The notes: generated by a model not told the origin, from the sequence alone. Counted from the stretch's first letter, positions 8,748-31,349 are shown. The stretch is 64,000 nt of DNA from Kiritimatiellia bacterium (GCA_040767085.1 JAXGPF010000003.1:512001-576000); one strand, 5' to 3'. Program-made: numbers and translations.

Positions 8748-9194
8748 TCAGGGGCAACCTGAGATCGCCCTGCGCTTTTCCCGATGTTCCGCCGGCCCGA
8801 TTTGATCGGACGGACGGCCGGCGACATACTGTTTTCCGGCGCCGACGCTCCGGATTGCCGGAATCAATTCTTCCAAAGCGCGGGGCTTGCAGACAAAGCC
8901 AAGCGCGCCGGCCTCCAGCACCGCCTGGATCAGAATCGGCGCGGAGTAATTTGAAAACACGATGACCTGCGTTCCCGGGCATTCCCCCATGATTGCCCAG
9001 GTGGCGTCGATGCCGTTCATCCGCGGCAGCATAATATCCATCACCACGACATCGGGACGGAGCTGCCGGACCAGCGCCAGCGCTGTTTCCGCCGACCCGA
9101 CATCCGCCACGACATCCAAATCCTTTTCCTGGCCGATCAGGCTTTTCACTTGTTTCCGCATTGGGATATGATCGTCCACCAGTAACACTTTCAT
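8748..9194 (-). CDS. Response regulator, NarL-type receiver domain without DNA-binding HTH
   Basis: MKVLLVDDH, VVVMDIMLP (phospho-Asp), S and K conserved; ends about 25 aa after the receiver. Confidence 0.85.
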   Translation of the reverse strand: MKVLLVDDHIPMRKQVKSLIGQEKDLDVVADVGSAETALALVRQLRPDVVVMDIMLPRMNGIDATWAIMGECPGTQVIVFSNYSAPILIQAVLEAGALGFVCKPRALEELIPAIRSVGAGKQYVAGRPSDQIGPAEHREKRRAISGCP

Positions 9195-9542
9195 GTTTTT
9201 CAATTGCCCCTGGATGCCATGCATATCCGCGGCGGCGGCCGTCTGACCAATGCGCCGCAACTGTTCCGGCGGAAACGGATTCCCGCCTTTCTGATTATGA
9301 TTGTGCCGTAAACCGCGGCCGGGGCCAATCGGGGAAAGCCTGATGCTCCCCGGCGTAAAACCCTATTCAAAGCGCCGGCAAAATCCGCAATCATACTTGC
9401 CTTCGCCGGCATTTCGGCGTATAAAACCAAGCGGCCCGACAATGCCCCCGGAAAGCATGGCCGAGGCGCGCTGGCCGCGCAGGCTTGACAGCGGCGGGGC
9501 ATTGGCAAATTGCGCCTGACATTCTTGGGAAAGCAATGGAAG

Positions 9543-12500
9543 ATGCATCCAGATAAATCCGGCGGCATCCAGCAAAATACCCCCCGCACACCCGCCGCAA
9601 GCGACCAGCTCCGTCCTGCGGTCGCCCCGGACAGCGCTGCCACGGAAAATTGGCTGTCCGCAGTCCTGGCAGCCCTCCCGGTGGGCGTGGCCATCACGGA
9701 CGACCGGGGCGTACGCATTCGGGCAAACGCCGAATTCGAACGCATCTGGAAAGGCCTGCAGCCGATCGTACGGGATGCCGCCGGCCCGACCGTTTATCAA
9801 GCTTGGTGGGCGGATTCCGGCAAACCGGTCCAGCCCGATGAATGGGCTTCCGCCCAGGCCGTGAACAAAGGCGAGACCGTGACCGGCCAGGTTCTGGAAA
9901 TCCAGCGACCCGACGGCACCCGCGGGTATATCGTCAACAGCGCCGCCCCGTTCCGGGACGACGCCGGCCGTATTGCCGGCAGCGCCGTGGCGATCCAAGA
10001 CATTACCGAACTGCGCCAGACCCAGTCGGAGATTGCGCACCTGGCTTCCTTCCCCATGCTGAACCCGCAGCCGGTGGTCGAGGCGGACATGGAAGGACAA
10101 GTGCTTTTCATGAATCCGTCAGCCCGGCAATTATTCCCGGATTTGAAACAGCTCGGGCCCAAGCATCCCTGGCTGGCGGGTTGGAACAGGGTGGCGCAGG
10201 CCTGCCGCCAAAGCGGCGGCGTCATCAGCGGATCCCGTGAAGTCACGCTTGGCGACAGTTCTTACCTGCAATCAATCTGCTATACCCCGCACCGCAACTG
10301 TGTGCGCATATACGGCATCGACATCACCGCGCGCAAACGCGCCCAGGAAGCCTTGCAGCAACTCAACGCCGAATTGGAACGCCGCGTGGCCCGGCAAACC
10401 GCCGAAATCCGCGAGAAAAGCGCTTACAACCGCCGCCTGATCGAAACCAGCCCGGACCCGCTGGTGACGATCGGACCGGACGGTAAGATCACGGACGTCA
10501 ACACGGCGACGGAAAAAGTGACGGGGCGGTCCCGGACGGAGCTGATCGGCACCGATTTCCTGGATTACTTCACGGAGCCGGAACGGGCGCGTGCGGGGTA
10601 CCAGCAGGTCTTCAAGGAAGGCCGGATCGGCGATTACCCGCTGGAAATCCGGCACCGGGACGGGCATGTCACGTCCGTCATTTACAACGCCTCGGTCTAC
10701 CGCGACGCGCAGGGGAAAGTCGCGGGGGTTTTCGCCGCCGCCCGCGACATCACCCAGCGCAAGCGCGCCGAGGAGCTGGTGCTGGCTGAGCGCCAGCGTC
10801 TTTATGACGTGCTGGAGACGCTGCCGGTTTACGTGGTGCTGCTGGCGCATGATCACCGCATGCCCTTTGCCAACCGGTTTTTCCGGGAGCGATTCGGCGT
10901 TGCCGGCGGCAAGCGCTGTTTTGAGCACCTTTTTAACCGGACCGAAGCCTGTAAAGACTGCGAGTCCTACAAGGCGCTGGAAACGAACGCGCCGCACCAT
11001 TGGGAGTGGACCGGGCCGGACGGACGCAACTACCAGATCCACGACTTCCCTTTCACGGACAGCGACGGGTCGCCCATGATCATGGAAATGGGCCTTGATA
11101 TCACGGATACCAGGCAGGCGCAGGCGGCGCTCCAGCAAGTCAACGAGACGCTGGAACAGCGTGTGGCTGACCGCACGGCGCAGTTGGCCGCCAGCGAGCA
11201 GCGCCTCAGGCAAGCGGAAGAGATCGCGCATCTCGGCAGTTGGGAGTTGGACATCGCGGGAGGCCGGCTGGCATGGTCGGATGAAGTCTTCCGCATCTTC
11301 GGCCTGGCGCCGCAGGAGTTCATGCCGACCTACGCGGCTTTCCTGGAGCGCGTGCATCCCGACGATCGGGCGATCGTGGATGAAGCTTATCAGAGTTCGG
11401 TGCGTGAAAACCGCGACACCTATGAAGTCGAACACCGGATCATCCGCAAGGACAACGGCGCCGTCCGCACGGTTCACGAGAAATGCGAACATTTCCTGGA
11501 TGCCGGCGGCCGGATTATCCGTTCGGTCGGCATGGTGCACGACATCACGGAACGTAAATGGGCGGATGAAGTGCTGCGGCGTTCGCACGACGAACTGGAA
11601 CAAATGGTCAAGGAACGCACCGCGGCCCTGGCGGATAGCGAACGGAAATACCGCGAACTGGTGGAGAATGCCAACAGCGTCATCATGCGCATCACCCCCG
11701 ACCATACCATCACGTTCTTCAACGAGTATGCGCAGCGCCTCTTTGGTTATACGCCGGCGGAACTGCTGGGCCGGAATGCGGTCGGCACTATCATCCCGTC
11801 CGTGGATTCGGCGGGACTCGATCTGCGAGCCATGATACAGGCAATCACGGCGGACCCCGACGGATACACGATCAACGAAAACGAGAATATCTGCAAGAAC
11901 GGCAAACGGGTCTGGGTGCATTGGTCCAACCGCGCCGTGCGCGACGAAAAGGGCCGGCTGGTCGAGATTCTATGCGTGGGGACGGACGTGACCGCACGCA
12001 AGCACTCGGAAGAACGCGCCAAGGTGACCGGCGCCATGCTTGCGCTCTTTGCCCGGAAAACCACCCGCCGCGATTATCTGGAAGCCGTGACGGATTTGCT
12101 CCAGCAAGTTTTCGGATGCCGCTGCATCGGCATCCGGATCCGCAACGATGATGGGGAGATCCCCTACGAGGCCAGCAAGGGATTCACACCGGAGTTTCTG
12201 GCATCCGAATCGCGCCTGCACCCCGACCGGCACGCGTGCGTCTGCCCGCGCATCATGAAGGCGCATCCGTTGCCGTGCGATCGCGCGGCGCTGAGTCCGG
12301 GCGGTTCCTTTTTCTGCAACGACACCGCGGTTTTCTTCAACACCATGCAGAAGGCGGATCGGCGGTTGTTCCGGGGCGTTTGCGCCAAATACGGATTTGC
12401 CTCCCTCGCCGTCCTACCGATCCGCTACCAGGGCCGGATGTTAGGCGCAGTCCACCTAGCCGATGAACGACCGGACAGGTTTCCCCCGGAGGTAGTCGAA

Positions 12501-13628
12501 TTCATTGAGACCATCATTCCGCTGGTCGGCGAGGCGTTGCACCGGTTCGACATGGAGGCGAAGTTGCGGAAGAGTGAAGAGCGCTACCGTTCGCTGGTGA
12601 TCGCCACGGCGCAAATCGTCTGGACCACTAACGCGGCGGGCGAGGCGACGGACGACCTGCCGGGCTGGCGGAAATTCACCGGCCAGAGCCGGGAGGAAAT
12701 CCGCGGGCAAGGCTGGATCGGCGCCGTGCACCCGGACGACCGCCAGCGGACGGCCGCCGTGTGGGAGCAAGCGGTCGCCACACGAACCTTGTATAACACG
12801 GAATATCGCCTGCGGCGCTTCGACGGCTGCTACCGCGACTTCGCTGTCCGCGGCGTACCCGTGATCGCAACGGACGGATCCGTGCGGGAATGGGTGGGAA
12901 CTTGCACCGATATTTCCCAGCAGAAGGCCATGGAGTCGGAAACCGCCCGTTACCAGGAACGCCTGCGCGGCCTGGCGGAGCGGCTGGCGGCCAGCGAAGA
13001 GCAGGAGCGTTGGCAAATCTCCCGCTACGTCCACGACACCATCATTCAGAATCTTTCGCTGGCCAGCATCAAGATTGGCGCCGCACAGAAAATCCTGCCC
13101 GCGGCCAGGCGCAAAAAGGATGGCGCCGAACTGCAAACGACCCGGACGCTGGTGGATGATGCCATCGCCGAATGCCGCACGGTGATGTCCGACCTGACGC
13201 CTTCCCTGCTCTACGACCTCGGGCTGGTGCCCGCGTTGCGGGAACTGGCGGACAAGATTCAGCAACAGCATGGCGTCCAGGTATGCGTCGCTGAAGAAGG
13301 CGCAGCTATCGCCATGGCCATTCCGCTCCGCGGCCTGATCTTCCAGTCCGCGCGTGAACTCATCATGAATGCCTTGAAACACGCCGGGCCGCGGGTGGTG
13401 CGCGTGACTGTCGCCGGCCGCAAAGGCGAAATCCTGATTCGTGTTCAAGACGATGGCGCGGGATTTGACCCGGACAAACTGGAGCGGCGCGACCCGCGTC
13501 AGGGCGGATTCGGCCTGTTCGGCATCCGCCTGCGCATCGAGAGCCTGAAAGGCTGGCTGGCGATCGAATCGGCGCCGGGAAAAGGCACCACGGCGGTAAT
13601 TACGCTGCCGGTTGCGGATGCGGGATGA
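9543..13628 (+). CDS. Cytoplasmic multi-PAS/PAC + GAF sensor histidine kinase (HisKA_3/NarX-like)
   Basis: Several PAS/PAC repeats ending DIT; GAF; EEQERWQISRYVHD H-box; NALKHA, DDGAGF, GFGL and GKGT boxes; no TM segments; start could be 9510. Confidence 0.92.
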   Translation: MHPDKSGGIQQNTPRTPAASDQLRPAVAPDSAATENWLSAVLAALPVGVAITDDRGVRIRANAEFERIWKGLQPIVRDAAGPTVYQAWWADSGKPVQPDEWASAQAVNKGETVTGQVLEIQRPDGTRGYIVNSAAPFRDDAGRIAGSAVAIQDITELRQTQSEIAHLASFPMLNPQPVVEADMEGQVLFMNPSARQLFPDLKQLGPKHPWLAGWNRVAQACRQSGGVISGSREVTLGDSSYLQSICYTPHRNCVRIYGIDITARKRAQEALQQLNAELERRVARQTAEIREKSAYNRRLIETSPDPLVTIGPDGKITDVNTATEKVTGRSRTELIGTDFLDYFTEPERARAGYQQVFKEGRIGDYPLEIRHRDGHVTSVIYNASVYRDAQGKVAGVFAAARDITQRKRAEELVLAERQRLYDVLETLPVYVVLLAHDHRMPFANRFFRERFGVAGGKRCFEHLFNRTEACKDCESYKALETNAPHHWEWTGPDGRNYQIHDFPFTDSDGSPMIMEMGLDITDTRQAQAALQQVNETLEQRVADRTAQLAASEQRLRQAEEIAHLGSWELDIAGGRLAWSDEVFRIFGLAPQEFMPTYAAFLERVHPDDRAIVDEAYQSSVRENRDTYEVEHRIIRKDNGAVRTVHEKCEHFLDAGGRIIRSVGMVHDITERKWADEVLRRSHDELEQMVKERTAALADSERKYRELVENANSVIMRITPDHTITFFNEYAQRLFGYTPAELLGRNAVGTIIPSVDSAGLDLRAMIQAITADPDGYTINENENICKNGKRVWVHWSNRAVRDEKGRLVEILCVGTDVTARKHSEERAKVTGAMLALFARKTTRRDYLEAVTDLLQQVFGCRCIGIRIRNDDGEIPYEASKGFTPEFLASESRLHPDRHACVCPRIMKAHPLPCDRAALSPGGSFFCNDTAVFFNTMQKADRRLFRGVCAKYGFASLAVLPIRYQGRMLGAVHLADERPDRFPPEVVEFIETIIPLVGEALHRFDMEAKLRKSEERYRSLVIATAQIVWTTNAAGEATDDLPGWRKFTGQSREEIRGQGWIGAVHPDDRQRTAAVWEQAVATRTLYNTEYRLRRFDGCYRDFAVRGVPVIATDGSVREWVGTCTDISQQKAMESETARYQERLRGLAERLAASEEQERWQISRYVHDTIIQNLSLASIKIGAAQKILPAARRKKDGAELQTTRTLVDDAIAECRTVMSDLTPSLLYDLGLVPALRELADKIQQQHGVQVCVAEEGAAIAMAIPLRGLIFQSARELIMNALKHAGPRVVRVTVAGRKGEILIRVQDDGAGFDPDKLERRDPRQGGFGLFGIRLRIESLKGWLAIESAPGKGTTAVITLPVADAG

Positions 13629-13663: not shown

Positions 13664-14122
13664 TCAGCCGAAAAGAAACTCCGCCGCGGCTTCCGGCTCG
13701 ATCCGGAAGGCCGAGCCCCGGCCCTCGAAAAACCCGTGCGCCTCGATCAGATGGACATTCAAATCCGTCCAAGCTAGTGTCGCGCCCGTCTTCGGCCGCT
13801 CGGCAGTCGTCACCCGCTTGGCATAACGCCCCGGATGCCCCCAGGGACAGACCAGCCAGCCCTTGCATTCCTCGCAACTCACCAGCAAATCCCCGCCGCC
13901 GGCGTCCACCTGCGTCCCCAATCCCGTCTGGGCCAGCGCCGTCAACTCGCGCATCCGCCGCGCCAGCAGCGCGGCGGTCACGCCGCATTTTGCCAGCGCG
14001 GCGGCATCGGCTTGAATGATCTCCGCGGCACTGCGCCGGTCATGCCCCATAAAGCCGTCCGCCACCAGCGCCGACGACCGCAGCAATTCATCCAACTTCC
14101 GGTCCCGGGGCGATGTCTTCAT
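13664..14122 (-). CDS. Hypothetical Cys/His-rich protein, last gene of the Rnf/Nqr-like operon
   Basis: GAGGAG RBS overlapping the upstream stop; 152 aa with CPWGH and HLIEAHGFFEGxGSxFR motifs. Confidence 0.8.
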   Translation of the reverse strand: MKTSPRDRKLDELLRSSALVADGFMGHDRRSAAEIIQADAAALAKCGVTAALLARRMRELTALAQTGLGTQVDAGGGDLLVSCEECKGWLVCPWGHPGRYAKRVTTAERPKTGATLAWTDLNVHLIEAHGFFEGRGSAFRIEPEAAAEFLFG

Positions 14123-14133
14123 AACCGCGCTCC

Positions 14134-15234
14134 TCATGCAAATTTATCATAGAAAATCCGGCCGGGCGGCATCCCCAGCGAAGTCAGCACTTGCTGCGCC
14201 GCATCTATCAGCCCCGGGCTGCCGCAGAGATATCCCTCGTGCCCGCTGAGATCGGCATGCCGCCGGCGGACCGCCTCCGTCACCAATCCCGTCTCACCCT
14301 GCCAGCCGCTGGAGGCTTCCGGCCGCGAAACCACGGGCACGAAGGTAAAATCCGGCAAAGCCCGGGAGAATTCCGCCATCTGATCCAGCAGGCACAAGTC
14401 GCGCGTCGAGTTGCCGCCGAAAAAATAGATCGTCTTGCGCCGGTCATGCGCCTGGCGCATGGCGTGCAGGATCGCGACAAACGGCGCCATGCCGCTGCCG
14501 CCCGCCAGAAACACCATCGGCGCGGCGGCGGCGCTGAGGCGGAAATCGCCGTAGGGGCCGTTAAACTTCACCGCATCGCCGGTTTTCAAGACATCAAAGC
14601 ACCAGGTCGTGCAAATCCCCCCCGGCACGCGCCGGATGATCAATTCCACGGCGCCGGCGTCGCCCGGATCGGACGCTATCGAATAAGCCCGATAAACCTC
14701 CTCCCGGTTGCCCCGATACCGCGGGCACAAAAGCTGCACATACTGCCCGGCCACAAACTCCAGCGCCGGCGGGTCAACCAACTCGAACCGGAAGCGCTTC
14801 ATGTCATACGTCAAATCCTCGATTTTCGTACAGCGCGCCGCGTATTCGCGGATGTTGAACAACTCCTCCGGAATTTCGATCGCCAGGTCATTCCGCACCT
14901 TCACCTGGCAGGACAGCCGCAGATTGTCCGCGATTTCGCCGGGCGTCAAAAAAGGCTGCTCGGTCGGCAAAAGCGCGCCGCCCCCGGCCAGCACCCGCAC
15001 CTTGCAGGCGCCGCAGGTGCCCCGGCCGCCGCAGGCGCTGGGGATGAAGATCCGGGAATCCGTCAGGGCCGACAGCAGCGGCTTGCCGCCCTGGACGGTG
15101 AGTTCCCGCTTGCCGTTGAGCGTGATCTTGCACTCGCCGTAATTGGCGATCAGGCGCTCGGCCACAACCACCATCAGCGCCAGCCCGGCGGCCAGGCCGC
15201 TGACGATCAATACCGCGGTGAAAATTCCTGTCAA
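14134..15234 (-). CDS. NqrF-like membrane-anchored [2Fe-2S]/FAD/NAD(P)H oxidoreductase
   Basis: N-terminal TM helix; SACGGRGTCGAC...RLSCQ 2Fe-2S motif; RAYSIAS, GGSGMAPF, YLCGSP and FYDKF FNR-family motifs; TTG start with GAGGA RBS. Confidence 0.9.
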   Translation of the reverse strand: MTGIFTAVLIVSGLAAGLALMVVVAERLIANYGECKITLNGKRELTVQGGKPLLSALTDSRIFIPSACGGRGTCGACKVRVLAGGGALLPTEQPFLTPGEIADNLRLSCQVKVRNDLAIEIPEELFNIREYAARCTKIEDLTYDMKRFRFELVDPPALEFVAGQYVQLLCPRYRGNREEVYRAYSIASDPGDAGAVELIIRRVPGGICTTWCFDVLKTGDAVKFNGPYGDFRLSAAAAPMVFLAGGSGMAPFVAILHAMRQAHDRRKTIYFFGGNSTRDLCLLDQMAEFSRALPDFTFVPVVSRPEASSGWQGETGLVTEAVRRRHADLSGHEGYLCGSPGLIDAAQQVLTSLGMPPGRIFYDKFA

Positions 15235-15244
15235 TGCAAGATCC

Positions 15245-15844
15245 TCAGTTCAGCACGCCCGTAAACCCGACAAATGCCAGGGCCATCAACCCGGCGATGA
15301 TCAGCGTGATCCCCGGCCCCTGCAAACCCCGGGGCACGCGGGCTTCGTTCAGGCGCTGCCGGATGCCCGCCATCGCCAGGATCGCCATCAGCCACCCGAC
15401 CCCGCTGCCGAAGCCGTAGCCGATGGTCACGATGAACGAGTAGCCGCGGATCACCATGAACAGCGATGCGCCCAGGATAGCGCAATTAACGGTAATCAGC
15501 GGCAGGAATATTCCCAGCGCCTGGTACAGCCGGGGCGAATACCGGTCAATCGCCATCTCCACCAACTGCACAAACGCGGCAATGATGATGATAAACAGGA
15601 TGAACCGGAAAAACTCCAGTTGCAGCGGCACTAAAACGTAATAATAGGCCAGCCAGTTCAGCGCCGCGGTCGCCGTCATCACAAACACCACCGCGCCGCC
15701 CAAGCCGGCCGCGGTTTTGACCTCGCGCGACACGCTGGTGAACGGGCACATCCCCAGGAAAGTCGTCAGGAGGATGTTTTGCGTAAAAATCGCGGCAAAA
15801 GCCGTGACCATCGCCAGCCAGATTTCCTGTCCCGCGCCGTTCAT
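15245..15844 (-). CDS. RnfA/NqrE-family membrane subunit
   Basis: FLGMCPF and FLPLITVNCAILG motifs, about 6 TM helices, ATGA overlap with upstream gene. Confidence 0.92.
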   Translation of the reverse strand: MNGAGQEIWLAMVTAFAAIFTQNILLTTFLGMCPFTSVSREVKTAAGLGGAVVFVMTATAALNWLAYYYVLVPLQLEFFRFILFIIIIAAFVQLVEMAIDRYSPRLYQALGIFLPLITVNCAILGASLFMVIRGYSFIVTIGYGFGSGVGWLMAILAMAGIRQRLNEARVPRGLQGPGITLIIAGLMALAFVGFTGVLN

Positions 15845-16464
15845 TTCTTGGCCCTCCCGGTTTCGATTGAGCGGCAGACCCACAGGACCGTGGCCAGCAT
15901 AAAAAACGCCCCCGGCGGCATCACCATGATGATCCACTTGTCCCAGTGCATGGTTGAAAAATACGGCATCGGCACGCCCAGAATCGTGCCCATGCCGAAC
16001 AATTCCCGCGGCACGGCAATCGCCAGCAGCACCCACGAATACCCCAGTCCGTTGAAGAGCCCGTCAAGCAGGGCCGGGCGCGGCGGATTCGACCCGGCAA
16101 ACGCTTCGCACCGGCCCATCAGGATGCAATTGGTGATGATCAGCCCCACAAACGGCCCGAGGTTGCGGCTCATCTCCGGCCAGTAAGCCTTCAGCGCCAG
16201 GTCAACAATGATCACGTAAAACGCCATGATCAGGGTCTGGACCATCATGCGGATATTCCGCGGCGTCCAATCCCGCAGGAGCGACACCGTCAGGCAACTC
16301 ATCATGGTCACCAGCGTCAGCGATATGCACATCACCGCCGTATTCAGCACCGCGTTGGTCACGGCCAGCGTGCTGCAAATCCCCAGAATCTGGCGGAAGA
16401 CCGGGTTGTCGCGCCACAGCCCGTCCAGCATGATCGCGCGCGGTTTCTTGGAAGCTCCGTTCAT
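15841..16464 (-). CDS. RnfE/NqrD-family membrane subunit
   Basis: NPVFRQILGICSTLAVT, GLIITNCILMGRCE and PPGAF motifs; ATGA overlap. Confidence 0.92.
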   Translation of the reverse strand: MNGASKKPRAIMLDGLWRDNPVFRQILGICSTLAVTNAVLNTAVMCISLTLVTMMSCLTVSLLRDWTPRNIRMMVQTLIMAFYVIIVDLALKAYWPEMSRNLGPFVGLIITNCILMGRCEAFAGSNPPRPALLDGLFNGLGYSWVLLAIAVPRELFGMGTILGVPMPYFSTMHWDKWIIMVMPPGAFFMLATVLWVCRSIETGRAKK

Positions 16465-17075
16465 GGCCCGCCTCCCCCGGCCCGCATCGCCTGCAGCCAC
16501 ACCGCGAGCCGCTCATTGATCAACTGCTCCAGCCGGCGGCAGGTCTGCGTTGCGCCGGTAATGCCATGCACCTCGTGCTCGCCCGGCGTTACCGCCGCCG
16601 GCCGGATGCCGATGGGGCGGTCTGGCGGCCCGAGCGTCAAGCCCGCAAACTGCCCGCGAAAATCCTTTTCCGTAATGCGGGCGCCCAGCCCCGGGGTCTC
16701 GCTCTGGTCATAAAATGCCAGGCCGGTAATCGCCGCGAGGTCGTGGGACACCCCCACCACCCCGCGGATCGGCGCCCAAAATCCCTGGCCGGCCACCGGC
16801 ACCGCGTAACCGGCGGTCCGGCCGTCCTTGCGGTAGACATACGCCCCGGCCGCGTCCGCGGATTTTTCGAAAAGCCGGTTGAACAACGCATGCACCCGCG
16901 GCGACGGCGGCACGGCAATCTCGGGGAACGCCTCCAGCACGGCGCGCTCGAACATCAACTGCTCGTTCGCCCTCACGCGCACCTGGGTCAGCCGCGAGAA
17001 TCCGATCAGCACCGCGCTCACGCAGGCGGTGGCCAGAAACATATACGCCACCGGAAACCAGGACCGGTTTTTCAT
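16461..17075 (-). CDS. RnfG/NqrC-family FMN-binding subunit
   Basis: N-terminal TM; GFW, ETPGLGA and flavinylation motif ITGATQT; ATGA overlap. Confidence 0.9.
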   Translation of the reverse strand: MKNRSWFPVAYMFLATACVSAVLIGFSRLTQVRVRANEQLMFERAVLEAFPEIAVPPSPRVHALFNRLFEKSADAAGAYVYRKDGRTAGYAVPVAGQGFWAPIRGVVGVSHDLAAITGLAFYDQSETPGLGARITEKDFRGQFAGLTLGPPDRPIGIRPAAVTPGEHEVHGITGATQTCRRLEQLINERLAVWLQAMRAGGGGP

Positions 17076-18172
17076 GGCCGCGCCTCCCCCCCATTCCGGG
17101 GCTGAACCGGCCGGCGGCCTTGCCAGGACTGCGCGCCGTAATCGATGATCGGCGCGAACATGTTGCCCAGTAAAATGGCGAACATCAGGCCGCCGTTGAA
17201 AATCGAGAAATTACGGATCACCAGGGTGGCCACGGCGATCAGGATGCCGTAATAGAGGCGTCCCAGCTCCGTCCGGGGCGAGCTGACCGGATCGGTTGCC
17301 ATAAAGAACGCTCCCAGCAGAAATCCCCCGCCGAACACCGCCGGCCAGGCCCCCGGCACGGGCTTGACGCCCAGCCAGAAGAGGCCCTGGTTCAACGCCG
17401 CATAGGTTAGAATCACCGCCAGGATCGTCGTGCGGCTGGCGGTTTTCGTCCAGAACAGATAAACGCCGCCAAGTAAAATCAGCAGCGCGCTGGTCGCCCC
17501 CATCGTGCCGCTGATGTTGCCGAAAAGCTGCGCCTTCAGCAGCGCGCCGGGGCGGACGGCCACCTGCTCGCGGTCGCCGACCGCCGGCGGTATCGCGGCG
17601 GCCGCCCCCACCGCCGATGACAGCGCCAGTTGCCCCGATTTTAAATAGGCCATCGGCGTCGCGCTGGTCGTCGCATCGGCGCCGTCCGCCCGCACCGCGG
17701 TGGTCCAGCGATCCAGGGCGCCGGGCGGCCCGGCGGCCGCCGGAGCCCACACCCCGGTCATGGCCACCGGAAAACAAATATAGACAAAGCACCGTCCGGC
17801 GACCGCCGGATTGAAGATGTTGCGCCCGAATCCGCCGAAAACCTCCTTGGAGAAAATCACCGCGAACCCCATGCCCACTGCCAGCACATGCCAGCCCACC
17901 CCCGGCGGCATGATCAGGCCAAACAGCGCCGCCGTCACAAACACCGCCTCGCTGACCGGCTCGCCGCGCAGCCGGCAAAACAACCACTCCAGCAAAAAGC
18001 CCCACGCGCAGCAAAACGCGATCATCGCCAGCGAGCGCCAGCCGAAATAATACACGCTGCCGGCCATACAGGGGATCAAGGCCAGCAGCACCCGGCGCAT
18101 CGCCGGCTGCCGGCGCAACCAGCCCGCCCGCGCAGGATTCCTGATGATCTGCCAAAGCATACCGGGCTTCAT
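17072..18172 (-). CDS. RnfD/NqrB-family membrane subunit
   Basis: KEVFGGFGRNIFNPA, DATTSATP flavinylation site, FMATDPVSSP; start set at 18172 because the upstream in-frame extension is MITE sequence. Confidence 0.92.
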   Translation of the reverse strand: MKPGMLWQIIRNPARAGWLRRQPAMRRVLLALIPCMAGSVYYFGWRSLAMIAFCCAWGFLLEWLFCRLRGEPVSEAVFVTAALFGLIMPPGVGWHVLAVGMGFAVIFSKEVFGGFGRNIFNPAVAGRCFVYICFPVAMTGVWAPAAAGPPGALDRWTTAVRADGADATTSATPMAYLKSGQLALSSAVGAAAAIPPAVGDREQVAVRPGALLKAQLFGNISGTMGATSALLILLGGVYLFWTKTASRTTILAVILTYAALNQGLFWLGVKPVPGAWPAVFGGGFLLGAFFMATDPVSSPRTELGRLYYGILIAVATLVIRNFSIFNGGLMFAILLGNMFAPIIDYGAQSWQGRRPVQPRNGGEARP

Positions 18173-18176
18173 GTTA

Positions 18177-18340
18177 TTAATATTCTCATAATAGACTGGA
18201 CGATTATTGATGGATTGGTAGGGCGGGCAGTCCCTTGCCCGCCTTGGCGCCCAAGGCGCGGGCCGCGCTGGCGGCACTGGGGCGCCCTACCGATGCAAGA
18301 TTGCGCTCAATTAATGTCTATATTATTTTGAGAACCTTAA
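18177..18340. mobile_element. MITE-like element carrying an inverted GTAG-REP pair, copy 1
   Basis: Near-exact reverse complement of 31187-31349 (1-bp indel); TTAA at both ends; internal GGTAGGGCG...CGCCCTACC. Confidence 0.8.
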
Positions 18341-18359
18341 TATGTGCAACTTTCGTCTG

Positions 18360-18512: not shown

Positions 18513-19349
18513 TTATCCGTATTTTTTGTCCGCCGACGGCATAACCTGCCGGCCGCCGCATTGAATCGCGGCGCGGTATTGCCGGGGCGACAGGCCGATT
18601 TGCTTTTTAAAAAGCTTGGTGAATTGCGCGGGGTCGGCATAACCGGCGCGGTCGGCGGCCTCTTTTACCGGCAAAACTTCCTCCTCCAGCCATGCGGCGG
18701 CTTGCAGCATCCGGCAGTGCAGCAGGTAATCGTAAAAACTCCGGCCGCAATGCCGGCGGAACAGGCGCCGGAAATGACCGACACAGACATGCATTTCCAG
18801 CGCCAGCGCCGGGGCCTGGTATGCGGCGAAGGGCGCCAGCCGCATGCGTTCAGTCCAGGCCCGGATTTTTTGCTCATAAACATCCACGGCTCCGGCTGGC
18901 GAAGCCAAGGCCGCCATTTGCAGAAGACGCTCCAACAGGATCACGCTTTCCGCCGCCATGCCCGGCCCTCGCTCTTTGAGTATGGCCAGCAACCGTGAAA
19001 ATATTTCGCGTACGGCCCCGGGCTGCGCGGCAAACACGAACCCATCCCCTGACAACCCGGTAAAACCGTCCTGAACCAGCCGCCGGGCGCGCGGTCCTCG
19101 AAGGATGAGGTAATAATGATCCCAGCCAGCCGCGTCCGCCGGCCCATACTCATAAATTTTACCAGGCATATGCCAGAAGAGCGCCGGCCGCTCCAGGATG
19201 TGGCGCAGGCCGCCATCCACGCGCCAATACATCCGGCCGGCATGCATGTATTCCACGGTATAAAAATCGGGGAACGCGCTTTTTACATGCACCCGGCACC
19301 CGGGTATATGCCGGCCCATGATCACCTTCAAATCGTCAAAATAAGCCAT
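18513..19349 (-). CDS. AraC-family transcriptional regulator
   Basis: N-terminal cupin-like domain; C-terminal HFRRLFRR...AGYADPAQFTKLFKKQIGLSPRQYR. Confidence 0.92.
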   Translation of the reverse strand: MAYFDDLKVIMGRHIPGCRVHVKSAFPDFYTVEYMHAGRMYWRVDGGLRHILERPALFWHMPGKIYEYGPADAAGWDHYYLILRGPRARRLVQDGFTGLSGDGFVFAAQPGAVREIFSRLLAILKERGPGMAAESVILLERLLQMAALASPAGAVDVYEQKIRAWTERMRLAPFAAYQAPALALEMHVCVGHFRRLFRRHCGRSFYDYLLHCRMLQAAAWLEEEVLPVKEAADRAGYADPAQFTKLFKKQIGLSPRQYRAAIQCGGRQVMPSADKKYG

Positions 19350-19471
19350 ATCCGTATATTCATATATGACAACTACTGGCGCATATTTGCCATTTACTTT
19401 TAGATATTCAATAGAATACGATAATTCCAGCTTGGAAATCAATGTTTGTTTGCGACAAACACAGGAGTAAC

Positions 19472-20530
19472 ATGCAAGGCAAAATCAAACGCAACCAGGA
19501 TTTCATGCGCCGGCTGTTTACCGGCCGGCCGGAGCGGCACGGGCTGGCGGTTTCCGTGACCCGGCCGCCCATTCCGGAGGAATTGGGCGATTATGCCATA
19601 TCCAGCCGGCCGGTGCGCGACTGGATTCCATGGTTCCGCGAGCATTATGCCGCGCAATGCGCATGGTTAAAGGCGTTTGACGACGATTCCGTCCCGTTCA
19701 TCAACCTTTTCACCAATACCGGCGTCTTTGCGGCGGCCTTCGGCTGCCCGCTGGAGAAAGTTCCCGGCAGCAGCGCCTGCGCCCGCCCGATCGTGCATTC
19801 CGCCGCCGAGGCCGCGCGCTTGCCGGAACCGGACTACCGCTCCGCCCCCATCCTGGCGCGGCTTTTTGAAATGGCGGATGCCTTGCGCGCGGAATTCGGG
19901 CCGGACGTGCCGTTGAGTCCGCCGGATATCCAGAGCCCGCTGGACATTGCCGCACTGATCTGGGACAAGTCGGAGTTTTTTGTCGCCATGCACGAGGAGC
20001 CGGCAGCGGTAGCGGAACTGGTGGACAAATGCACGCGCCTGCTTTGCGCATTCATTCCCGCCTACATCCGCCATGTCGGGGCAATCAATACCTTGTGTTA
20101 TGCCCGCTGGTATGCCCCGGGCGACCTGGGTTGTTACGTGGCGGAGGACGAATGCGGAAGCATCAACCCGGAGATGTTCGAACGGTTCGGCATGCCGGGC
20201 TTAAGGGCGTTAAGCCAGGCGGCCAACGGGCTGTTCATGCATTCCTGCGCCAACGCCGACCATCAATATCCCCTCTTGCGCACGCTCCCGAATTTGCGCG
20301 GATTCAACCGCGTTTTTACCAAAGCCCAGAACTTTTCCATGCCGCAGCGCATGTTGGATTCCTTTGCCGACCGCTCCGTGCTGATGCTCGGCGGCCCGGT
20401 GCAGAAAGGGCTGGACATGCTGGCCGCGGCGCCGGCCGGGACGCGGTTCCTGTTTGCCATGGGATTCAAGGAAATCAACGACGACGCCCGGCGGGCTTAC
20501 GATGAAATGCGCCGGCGCTGCGAAAGATAA
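19472..20530 (+). CDS. Uroporphyrinogen decarboxylase / MtaA-CmuA fold protein
   Basis: AGGAG RBS; DIQSPLDIAALIW, EDE...INPEMFERF and HSC motifs. Confidence 0.75.
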   Translation: MQGKIKRNQDFMRRLFTGRPERHGLAVSVTRPPIPEELGDYAISSRPVRDWIPWFREHYAAQCAWLKAFDDDSVPFINLFTNTGVFAAAFGCPLEKVPGSSACARPIVHSAAEAARLPEPDYRSAPILARLFEMADALRAEFGPDVPLSPPDIQSPLDIAALIWDKSEFFVAMHEEPAAVAELVDKCTRLLCAFIPAYIRHVGAINTLCYARWYAPGDLGCYVAEDECGSINPEMFERFGMPGLRALSQAANGLFMHSCANADHQYPLLRTLPNLRGFNRVFTKAQNFSMPQRMLDSFADRSVLMLGGPVQKGLDMLAAAPAGTRFLFAMGFKEINDDARRAYDEMRRRCER

Positions 20531-31162: not shown

Positions 31163-31186
31163 GATTATCCTTGGCATTTACAGGCA

Positions 31187-31349
31187 TTAAGGTTCTCAAA
31201 ATAATATAGACATTAATTGAGCGCAATCTTGCATCGGTAGGGCGCCCAGTGCCGCCAGCGCGGCCCGCGCCTTGGGCGCCAAGGCGGGCAAGGGACTGCC
31301 CGCCCTACCAATCCATCAATAATCGTCCAGTCTATTATGAGAATATTAA
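31187..31349. mobile_element. MITE-like element carrying an inverted GTAG-REP pair, copy 2
   Basis: Reverse complement of 18177-18340, TTAA at both ends. Confidence 0.8.

Follow-up and report, generated by a model that had tools for sequence, protein, structure and literature searches.

The closest described systems to the locus treated here are Na+-NQR (NqrABCDEF; Vibrio cholerae, PDB 7XK3 and 8A1T-8A1Y), the ferredoxin:NAD+ oxidoreductase Rnf (RnfABCDGE; PDB 7ZC6, 8AHX and 9ERK), and clusters of nqrBCDEF without NqrA. The latter have appeared in genome papers since 2014, from Pseudothermotoga thermarum, P. lettingae, Clostridium ultunense and Ca. Izimaplasma ZiA1, and in the sections of these papers available to us their second substrate is called unknown (PMC4148951, PMC5924567, PMC6256511). 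In C. ultunense a rubrerythrin (CUESP_0386) lies seven locus tags away from nqrBCDEF (CUESP_0375-0379), and the available text of the paper passes over it without comment. Thermotogae came out without an nqr operon in a 2014 paper on evolution (PMC4014512), in whose available sections no mention of NqrA-less forms was found. A related arrangement is carried by a stretch of 64,000 nucleotides (nt), referred to as the window, of the Kiritimatiellia bacterium genome GCA_040767085.1 (JAXGPF010000003.1:512001-576000; genome of 4.08 Mb, 95.06% complete), where five RNF/NQR-type subunits and a soluble, uncharacterised protein (X) are encoded on the minus strand by a six-gene unit, named B-C-D-E-F-X here.

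An earlier reading of the window, made from the DNA alone (the sequence-only reading), had picked out genes B to F and proposed an NAD(P)H-linked, possibly ion-translocating complex with an unknown second redox partner. That description of the complex stands, and a concrete candidate for the partner can now be named: with moderate confidence, the electron acceptor is a rubredoxin-type protein. On balance, the operon appears to encode an NAD(P)H:rubredoxin oxidoreductase of the RNF/NQR type, probably ion-pumping; that the rubredoxin step is coupled to ions is held less firmly than the nature of the acceptor. The same reading suspected that incomplete clusters of this kind had already been noted and were biochemically uncharacterised, and this is so in the three genome papers cited above, as far as their available sections go.

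Links of F and X to rubredoxin

Three independent kinds of evidence link F-X to rubredoxin: gene neighbourhood, protein fusions and a reduced natural form of the unit. For the neighbourhood, a search with F gave 418 relatives. The 80 best-ranking loci were taken forward, and all open reading frames (ORFs) around these were clustered, with Pfam applied to the representatives. The 80 loci come from Phycisphaerae, Sedimentisphaerales, Anaerohalosphaeraceae, Kiritimatiellia, Verrucomicrobiota, Lentisphaerota, Thermodesulfobacteriota and WOR-3, and one of them (L033) belongs to an Anaerohalosphaeraceae isolate. Wherever the contig has room, B-C-D-E-F are colinear, and X follows directly after F in 76 of the 80; in two of the remaining four loci the contig ends inside F, and the other two (L057 and L091) have room and no X match. 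Of the 74 loci whose contigs continue for 400 nt or more past X, 31 have a rubredoxin gene downstream of X at a distance of no more than 600 nt; in two further loci such a gene lies just ahead of B. In 21-34 loci the unit is part of an island that runs on one strand in the order FUR/PerR, rubrerythrin, peroxiredoxin, flavodiiron protein, desulfoferrodoxin, ferritin, rubrerythrin/ferritin-like protein, B-C-D-E-F-X, rubredoxin, G6PD and Rex. The rubredoxin linkage is kept through a rearrangement in L020, and also in the diverged loci L077, L081, L084 and L089.

Fusions of X to rubredoxin (P0009 and P0008) provide the second kind of evidence, and in L084 such a fusion ORF of 210 amino acids (aa), read from the DNA at 9161-9790, lies directly after F in a complete operon. 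Other X fusions involve rubrerythrin (P0044), nitroreductase (P0098) and peroxiredoxin (P0010), and this variety of partners suggests that X is a docking adaptor, not a catalyst. L084 also has a flavodiiron gene upstream of B, with 42 nt between its end and B.

The reduced form is found in L045 (4781-6598), where the same island slot is occupied by an F of 341 aa without a transmembrane (TM) helix, followed by X, rubredoxin and G6PD, and where B-E are missing. This F is a BenC/MmoC-like protein with ferredoxin, flavin adenine dinucleotide (FAD) and NAD domains. F and X therefore go with rubredoxin even without the membrane part, and this soluble form also strengthens the rubredoxin link. The only E homologue in the genomes of L045 and of a second locus, L046 (G201 and G202), is RnfA-type (46% identical); the L046 contig ends inside F, placing the N-terminus of F and the genes upstream of it outside the view.

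Protein X belongs to a large family that is unannotated. At E <= 0.001 a profile matches 1704 representative clusters, a number that falls to 738 when the threshold is 1e-10 and to 102 when it is 1e-30. The window protein scores 216.7 bits against the family profile. Pfam and NCBIfam have no family for it (none of 66 diverse members has a match over the X core), and the protein atlas gave only clusters labelled 'hypothetical protein', one of them with DUF7919 on 13% of its members. The AlphaFold model is of high confidence, with a predicted local distance difference test (pLDDT) of 95.6 and a predicted template modelling score (pTM) of 0.89, and consists of three helices, a three-stranded sheet and two helices. 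This fold found no match among solved structures, the best Foldseek E-value being 0.16 and the best VIA-align Z-score 2.7 (48,161 chains). When the X profile was compared with PDB sequences, the best hit was Nup54 (E 0.045), and it was judged to be due to chance. Across the 66 diverse members, the nearly invariant residues are G23, G26, D28, R30, D39, G88, P93, K102, H124, H129, F131, G134, R140 and P143. A Cys/His3 metal site, suggested by 48 close relatives, is speculative, as it is not kept in the 66 diverse members (H96 lost, C92 below 90%). By eye, X has no signal peptide and no TM segment.

The six-gene unit and its relatives

Genes B to F are intact, as judged from their translations and from Pfam (Table 1). 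The sequence-only reading had seen five tightly coupled genes, and its coordinates, the coupling and the ATGA overlaps at B/C, C/D and D/E, which can be read from the DNA, were all confirmed; the five are genuine, and the sixth gene, X, had been overlooked. F begins with a TTG codon that has GAGGA 8 nt upstream. For X, a GGAG after the F stop precedes an ATG at 14122; starting there, the protein has the N-terminus MKTSP common to X relatives, and this is the likely, family-consistent start; the alternative ATG, giving the longer product, overlaps the F stop. The flavinylation threonines and membrane Cys pairs noted by the earlier reading are present in the translations, and F is, as it stated, a subunit with TM, 2Fe-2S, FAD and NAD parts, to judge from its Pfam domains and from the motifs CGGRGTCGAC...C (Cx5Cx2C...C), RAYS and GGSGMAP. 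The layout of the window unit is that of the related loci, with an X homologue directly downstream of an NqrF-type gene after B-C-D-E.

Table 1. Genes of the B-C-D-E-F-X unit and features upstream of it, in window coordinates.
Feature	Description	Position	Strand	Basis
B	RnfD/NqrB-like, 366 aa, polytopic membrane protein, flavinylation motif DATTSAT	17072..18172	-	PF03116 NQR2_RnfD_RnfE, 281.5 bits
C	RnfG/NqrC-like, 204 aa, N-terminal anchor and flavin mononucleotide (FMN)-binding domain, motif ITGAT	16461..17075	-	PF04205 FMN_bind
D	RnfE/NqrD-like, 207 aa, Cys in GICS and TNC	15841..16464	-	PF02508 Rnf-Nqr, 186 bits
E	RnfA/NqrE-like, 199 aa, Cys in GMCP and VNC	15245..15844	-	PF02508 Rnf-Nqr, 180.3 bits
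F	NqrF-type (TM helix, 2Fe-2S, FAD and NAD(P)H domains), 366 aa	14134..15234	-	Fer2 + FAD_binding_6 + NAD_binding_1
X	Soluble uncharacterised protein, 152 aa from start 14122, 157 aa from 14137	13664..14137	-	Position after F
AraC-family regulator		18513..19442	-	HTH_18, HTH_AraC, AraC_binding
Repeated element	About 165 nt, between AraC gene and B	18173..18342	.	Nucleotide copies

The operon holds no NqrA, RnfC or RnfB, as the sequence-only reading had maintained. NqrA (TIGR01936) has no match in the window genome, and the orphan nqrA gene that might have been present elsewhere was thus not found there. For RnfC (524 bits) and RnfB (101.9 bits) this genome has a single gene each, and both belong to a separate, complete and canonical rnfABCDGE operon (C24:307879-313146). 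Nor do relatives have nqrA or rnfC directly upstream: no NqrA/RnfC-type gene occurs among 53 ORFs upstream of B from 43 related loci (53 of the 96 ORFs listed for the 48 loci examined), and RnfB and RnfC were not found beside the unit in related loci. A premise of the earlier reading, that NQR needs NqrA for quinone reduction, has not aged well; a 2025 review (PMC12174285), in its available sections, places quinone reduction in the membrane and describes NqrA as a subunit that carries no cofactor and to which no function has been assigned. The words 'rubredoxin' and 'hybrid' do not occur in that review.

When scored against curated models, all five subunits B-F fall below the cut-offs of both Nqr and Rnf. 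B scores 193-198 against nqrB cut-offs of 350-414 and 206.6 against the rnfD cut-off of 207.05; C scores 79.5 against 144 (nqrC) and 57 against 102 (rnfG); D scores 227.1 against 244.85 (nqrD) and 168.7 against 213.4 (rnfE); and E scores 219.7 against 247.55 (nqrE) and 208.6 against 229.3 (rnfA). F scores 240.4 against the nqrF cut-off of 295 (TIGR01941), and for this subunit there is no Rnf model. 'Hybrid', the label used in the sequence-only reading, is loose for subunits that lie below the cut-offs of both families; its NqrF-like reductase is a true NqrF-type protein. The best solved match of F is V. cholerae NqrF (182.6 bits over residues 6-365, with the Cys motif aligned), relative to which F has two deletions in the FAD domain and is about 40 aa shorter. 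The small sizes of F and B had been reported correctly: F has 366 aa versus 403-424 in 11 canonical NQR operons from the same phylum and 408 in V. cholerae, and B, also of 366 aa, is RnfD-sized (solved RnfD chains have 310-366 aa, V. cholerae NqrB 415). Aligned with the latter (7xk3_B), B is without some 32 N-terminal residues and the 84-137 insertion, its residue 25 pairing with residue 57 and its residue 56 with residue 138.

Identities of the window proteins to the 11 canonical same-phylum NQR operons are 30-36% for B, 28-36% for C, 42-50% for D, 46-55% for E and 28-34% for F. The subunits of the genome's own rnf operon are 33-43% identical to B-E, and its RnfE is 35% identical to D. For E, homologues in the family are 59-86% identical to the window protein; the corresponding figures are 49-55% for a diverse set of 11 NqrE and 37-51% for 7 RnfA, and because identity declines in this order the B-C-D-E-F-X family looks distinct and somewhat nearer to Nqr. 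Members are found in Planctomycetota, Kiritimatiellia, Lentisphaerota, Thermodesulfobacteriota, Spirochaetota and WOR-3. Among them are loci first retrieved as RnfA relatives (Spirochaetota, Syntrophobacterales and Thermodesulfobacteriota), in which E is 59-67% identical to that of the window; the gene order was read in two of these (L271 and L264), and the X homologue was confirmed in L271 (39% identical). No published name was found for the B-C-D-E-F-X family.

Residues expected along the membrane electron route are strongly conserved. In B, residues E62, D294 and D344, equivalent to NqrB E144, D346 and D397, which we take to have a role with sodium, are invariant in 34 of 34 family members. 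In the DATTSAT columns of the same 34 sequences A171 is invariant, and T169 and P173 are present in at least 90%. The GATQT motif of C is invariant in 17 of 17 members, and C33, C121 and E96 of E do not vary in a set of 28 sequences made up of family members, NqrE and RnfA. The Cys pair of D (GICS, TNC) was read in the window sequence alone. ApbE is encoded in the window genome, away from the operon. Conservation of the flavinylation Thr, Cys and acidic residues in the family suggests that the membrane electron route is under selection.

Proposed electron path and the alternatives

In the proposed mechanism, a six-subunit membrane complex would oxidise NAD(P)H at the NqrF-type subunit. By analogy with the solved NQR and RNF structures, as covered in the available sections of the 2025 review (PMC12174285), electrons would then pass from F (FAD, 2Fe-2S) to D/E (2Fe-2S), C (FMN) and B (FMN, riboflavin), as in NQR. 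They would exit on the cytoplasmic side to a rubredoxin putatively docked by X, which would be placed roughly at the position of NqrA or RnfC, in reach of B and F. According to the same sections, NqrA may steady NqrF as well as NqrB, and one may speculate by analogy that a protein at its position could touch both B and F (PMC12174285). Rubredoxin would in turn supply the flavodiiron protein, desulfoferrodoxin and rubrerythrin, and quinone would not be an acceptor. The drop from NAD(P)H to rubredoxin is about 0.3 V, which could drive the export of Na+ or H+. If this is correct, the RNF/NQR pump family would have a third output chemistry. The constancy of X, the X-rubredoxin fusions and the soluble F-X form also turn the open question of the acceptor into a testable one, namely NAD(P)H:rubredoxin activity.

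Several points weigh against this proposal. Contact of X with B, F or rubredoxin is putative, and no recognisable cofactor site was found in X among its 66 diverse members. Given the soluble F-X form, X may work with F and not with B, and a direct path from F to rubredoxin may bypass the pump, which would leave the pumping step unsupported. In C, the residue six positions before the flavinylated Thr is mostly His, with Asp, Asn or Ser in a few members; Asp is usual at this position in canonical ApbE target sites. No rubredoxin or detoxification gene adjoins the unit in the window, as is the case in 43 of the 74 loci. The window genome does encode these proteins, with rubredoxin, rubrerythrin and ferritin clustered on contig C3 and the flavodiiron protein (C2:170415-171593), desulfoferrodoxin, PerR and G6PD also lying away from the operon. 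Loci outside the island class have no neighbours in common beyond sensor kinases (5 loci) and AhpD-like carboxymuconolactone-decarboxylase-family (CMD) and CBS genes (3 loci). The island counts are not independent, because the island association clusters in Phycisphaerae-type genomes that are related to one another. Among 201 sampled genomes of the phylum, rubredoxin occurs in 11 of the 11 genomes that carry X versus 112 of the 190 others, and this co-occurrence test is weak because rubredoxin is common (59% of the X-negative genomes) and kin are not independent. Finally, a divergent MenA-like prenyltransferase (115 bits versus cut-offs of at least 264) is encoded beside a polyprenyl diphosphate synthase in the window genome (G000:C25:313996-315860; L093:485-2349), so that use of a scavenged naphthoquinone is possible.

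The alternative that survives best, itself unlikely, is that X is an assembly or maturation factor (NqrM- or ApbE-like) or a regulator, and that B-F deliver electrons to a soluble flavoprotein, to a directly reduced rubrerythrin-like diiron protein, or to O2. It would account for a protein with no recognisable redox cofactor motif and an unmatched fold, and for the 43 of 74 loci, including the window, with no rubredoxin nearby; in 28-30 loci, moreover, the gene directly upstream of B encodes a rubrerythrin/ferritin-like protein that has no rubredoxin domain. Such a role sits poorly with the fusions of X to four redox proteins, which fit a docking or electron-transfer partner, and with the retention of X beside a TM-less F after the loss of B-E.

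Reduction of quinone is an improbable second alternative. The complex would then be a stripped-down NADH:(mena)quinone oxidoreductase without NqrA, with B as the site of quinone reduction and X in an accessory role. The recent view of NqrA given above agrees with this, as do the scores of D, E, C and F, which are nearer to the Nqr than to the Rnf models, and the MenA-like prenyltransferase and polyprenyl synthase genes. However, MenB, MqnA/D of the futalosine pathway and cytochrome bd were not found in the 95% complete window genome, the matches to MenA, MenD and MenG are far below cut-off, and no complete quinone pathway was detected. B is also without the N-terminal extension and the insertion of NqrB, and the genomes that carry X and NqrA are disjoint: in the 201-genome sample NqrA was above cut-off in 26 and X was present in 11, with an overlap of 0 (0 of 11).

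A Rnf-like function, in which a reversible link between NAD(H) and a low-potential ferredoxin or flavodoxin docked by X is driven by, or builds, an ion gradient, is given even less credence. B is RnfD-sized and comes very close to the rnfD cut-off, and the hosts are fermenters carrying Rnf, but the window genome already has its complete canonical rnfABCDGE operon, the NADH module of the unit occupies the D/E side, which in Rnf is the docking side for the low-potential partner, and the neighbours and fusions of X are of rubredoxin type and not of ferredoxin type. An exit on the outer face, with the FMN of C handing electrons to an acceptor outside the cytoplasm, is very improbable. The unit does lack an NqrA/RnfC-type output module, and in NQR and RNF the FMN-bearing domain of C lies outside the cytoplasm, but the six-gene form always has X, in which no sign of export is seen by eye, the X-linked partners (rubredoxin, flavodiiron protein, rubrerythrin and G6PD) are cytoplasmic, and the riboflavin-side residues of B are conserved.

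If the operon does encode an ion-pumping NAD(P)H:rubredoxin oxidoreductase, a broader scheme, offered here tentatively and with considerable doubt, would be a 'rubredoxin respiration' in strict anaerobes without quinones or cytochromes. G6PD would make NAD(P)H, the six-subunit complex would pump Na+ or H+, and the X adaptor would pass electrons to rubredoxin and so to the flavodiiron protein, superoxide reductase and rubrerythrin, which would reduce O2 and its products, so that oxygen defence would yield energy. X would be a modular dock for rubredoxin, rubrerythrin, nitroreductase and peroxiredoxin. Detoxification of O2 and peroxide would then be energy-conserving in quinone-poor anaerobes that are abundant in digester, sediment and gut (Kiritimatiellia, Phycisphaerae, Lentisphaerota and Thermodesulfobacteriota).

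Flanking genes and comparison with described systems

The next gene upstream of B, on the same strand, was correctly given by the sequence-only reading as an AraC gene, and Pfam agrees. In the closest relative (L015) an AraC gene that is 84% identical also lies directly upstream of B, and the protein is a possible regulator of the operon in the window lineage. Adjoining it in the window is a URO-D/MtaA-like gene (19442-20530, plus strand), a paralogue of which (92% identical, C2:167670-168722) lies 1.7 kb from the flavodiiron gene on contig C2.

Between the AraC gene and B is the element that had been called an adjacent miniature inverted-repeat transposable element (MITE), and it is a genuine repeat with copies elsewhere. 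A 99% copy is found 13 kb away in the window at about 31186-31349 (G000:C22:543186-543349) and a 90% copy on another contig (C6:18132-18298); counting the element itself there are 48 matches, which have a core of about 45 nt in common. The element upstream of B contains short inverted repeats at 18211-18225 and 18283-18297. Loss of nqrA at this repeat, which had been raised earlier, was rejected, since relatives without the repeat are also without nqrA.

On the other side of the unit, an ORF of 1372 aa (9510-13628, plus strand), by eye a multi-PAS sensor histidine kinase, is convergent on X with a gap of 35 nt, and an 89% identical gene has the same arrangement in L013. The 5 non-island loci with sensor kinases in the vicinity include two that have LuxR-type response regulators as well. 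In three other loci of the non-island class (L055, L068 and L071) the AhpD-like CMD-family gene, a peroxide-related neighbour, and a CBS-pair gene precede B (e.g., L071:3909-4715).

Near-identical DNA occurs in sludge, anaerobic-digester, biofilm and landfill metagenomes of six studies. Metatranscriptome libraries of two studies contain four short contigs with 100% identity to parts of B, E and F, leaving most of the operon uncovered; they are a weak hint of transcription, and DNA carry-over is possible.

Full-text literature searches, with subscription journals and supplements outside their coverage, found no published link between an Nqr or NqrF-type complex and rubredoxin. The NqrA-less arrangement is known, and the sixth subunit and the hypothesis of a rubredoxin acceptor were not found in print. 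In comparison with Na+-NQR, the unit has the same gene order B-C-D-E-F, the same kind of NqrF-type input subunit (TM helix, Cx5Cx2C...C 2Fe-2S motif, FAD and NAD domains), flavinylation Thr in B and C, four Cys in D/E, equivalents of the three acidic NqrB residues, and D and E proteins that are 42-55% identical to canonical NqrD/E. It differs in having no NqrA in the locus or the genome, an additional protein X, short B and F, scores below cut-off and no complete quinone pathway detected. With Rnf it has in common the membrane core, an RnfD-sized B and anaerobic fermenter hosts; RnfB and RnfC are lacking, however, and NADH would enter through an NqrF-type subunit on what is the ferredoxin side of Rnf.

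The proposed net reaction and role are those of the soluble NADH:rubredoxin oxidoreductase (NROR), which in anaerobes supplies rubredoxin, flavodiiron protein, superoxide reductase and rubrerythrin. NROR consists of one soluble flavoprotein, does not conserve energy, and is presumably unrelated in sequence to the window complex. In the island, by contrast, the NAD(P)H oxidiser is a membrane complex of RNF/NQR type or, in L045, a BenC/MmoC-like protein with X. A chain from NROR through rubredoxin to a flavodiiron protein is described in the available part of PMC13253579. The published nqrBCDEF clusters have the same five-gene layout without NqrA as the unit, whereas the available sections of those papers mention neither a sixth gene nor a rubredoxin link (PMC4148951, PMC5924567, PMC6256511). 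What is new relative to all of these is the association of X with F, the rubredoxin island and fusions, and the soluble F-X form, which together offer leads to an acceptor left open since 2014.

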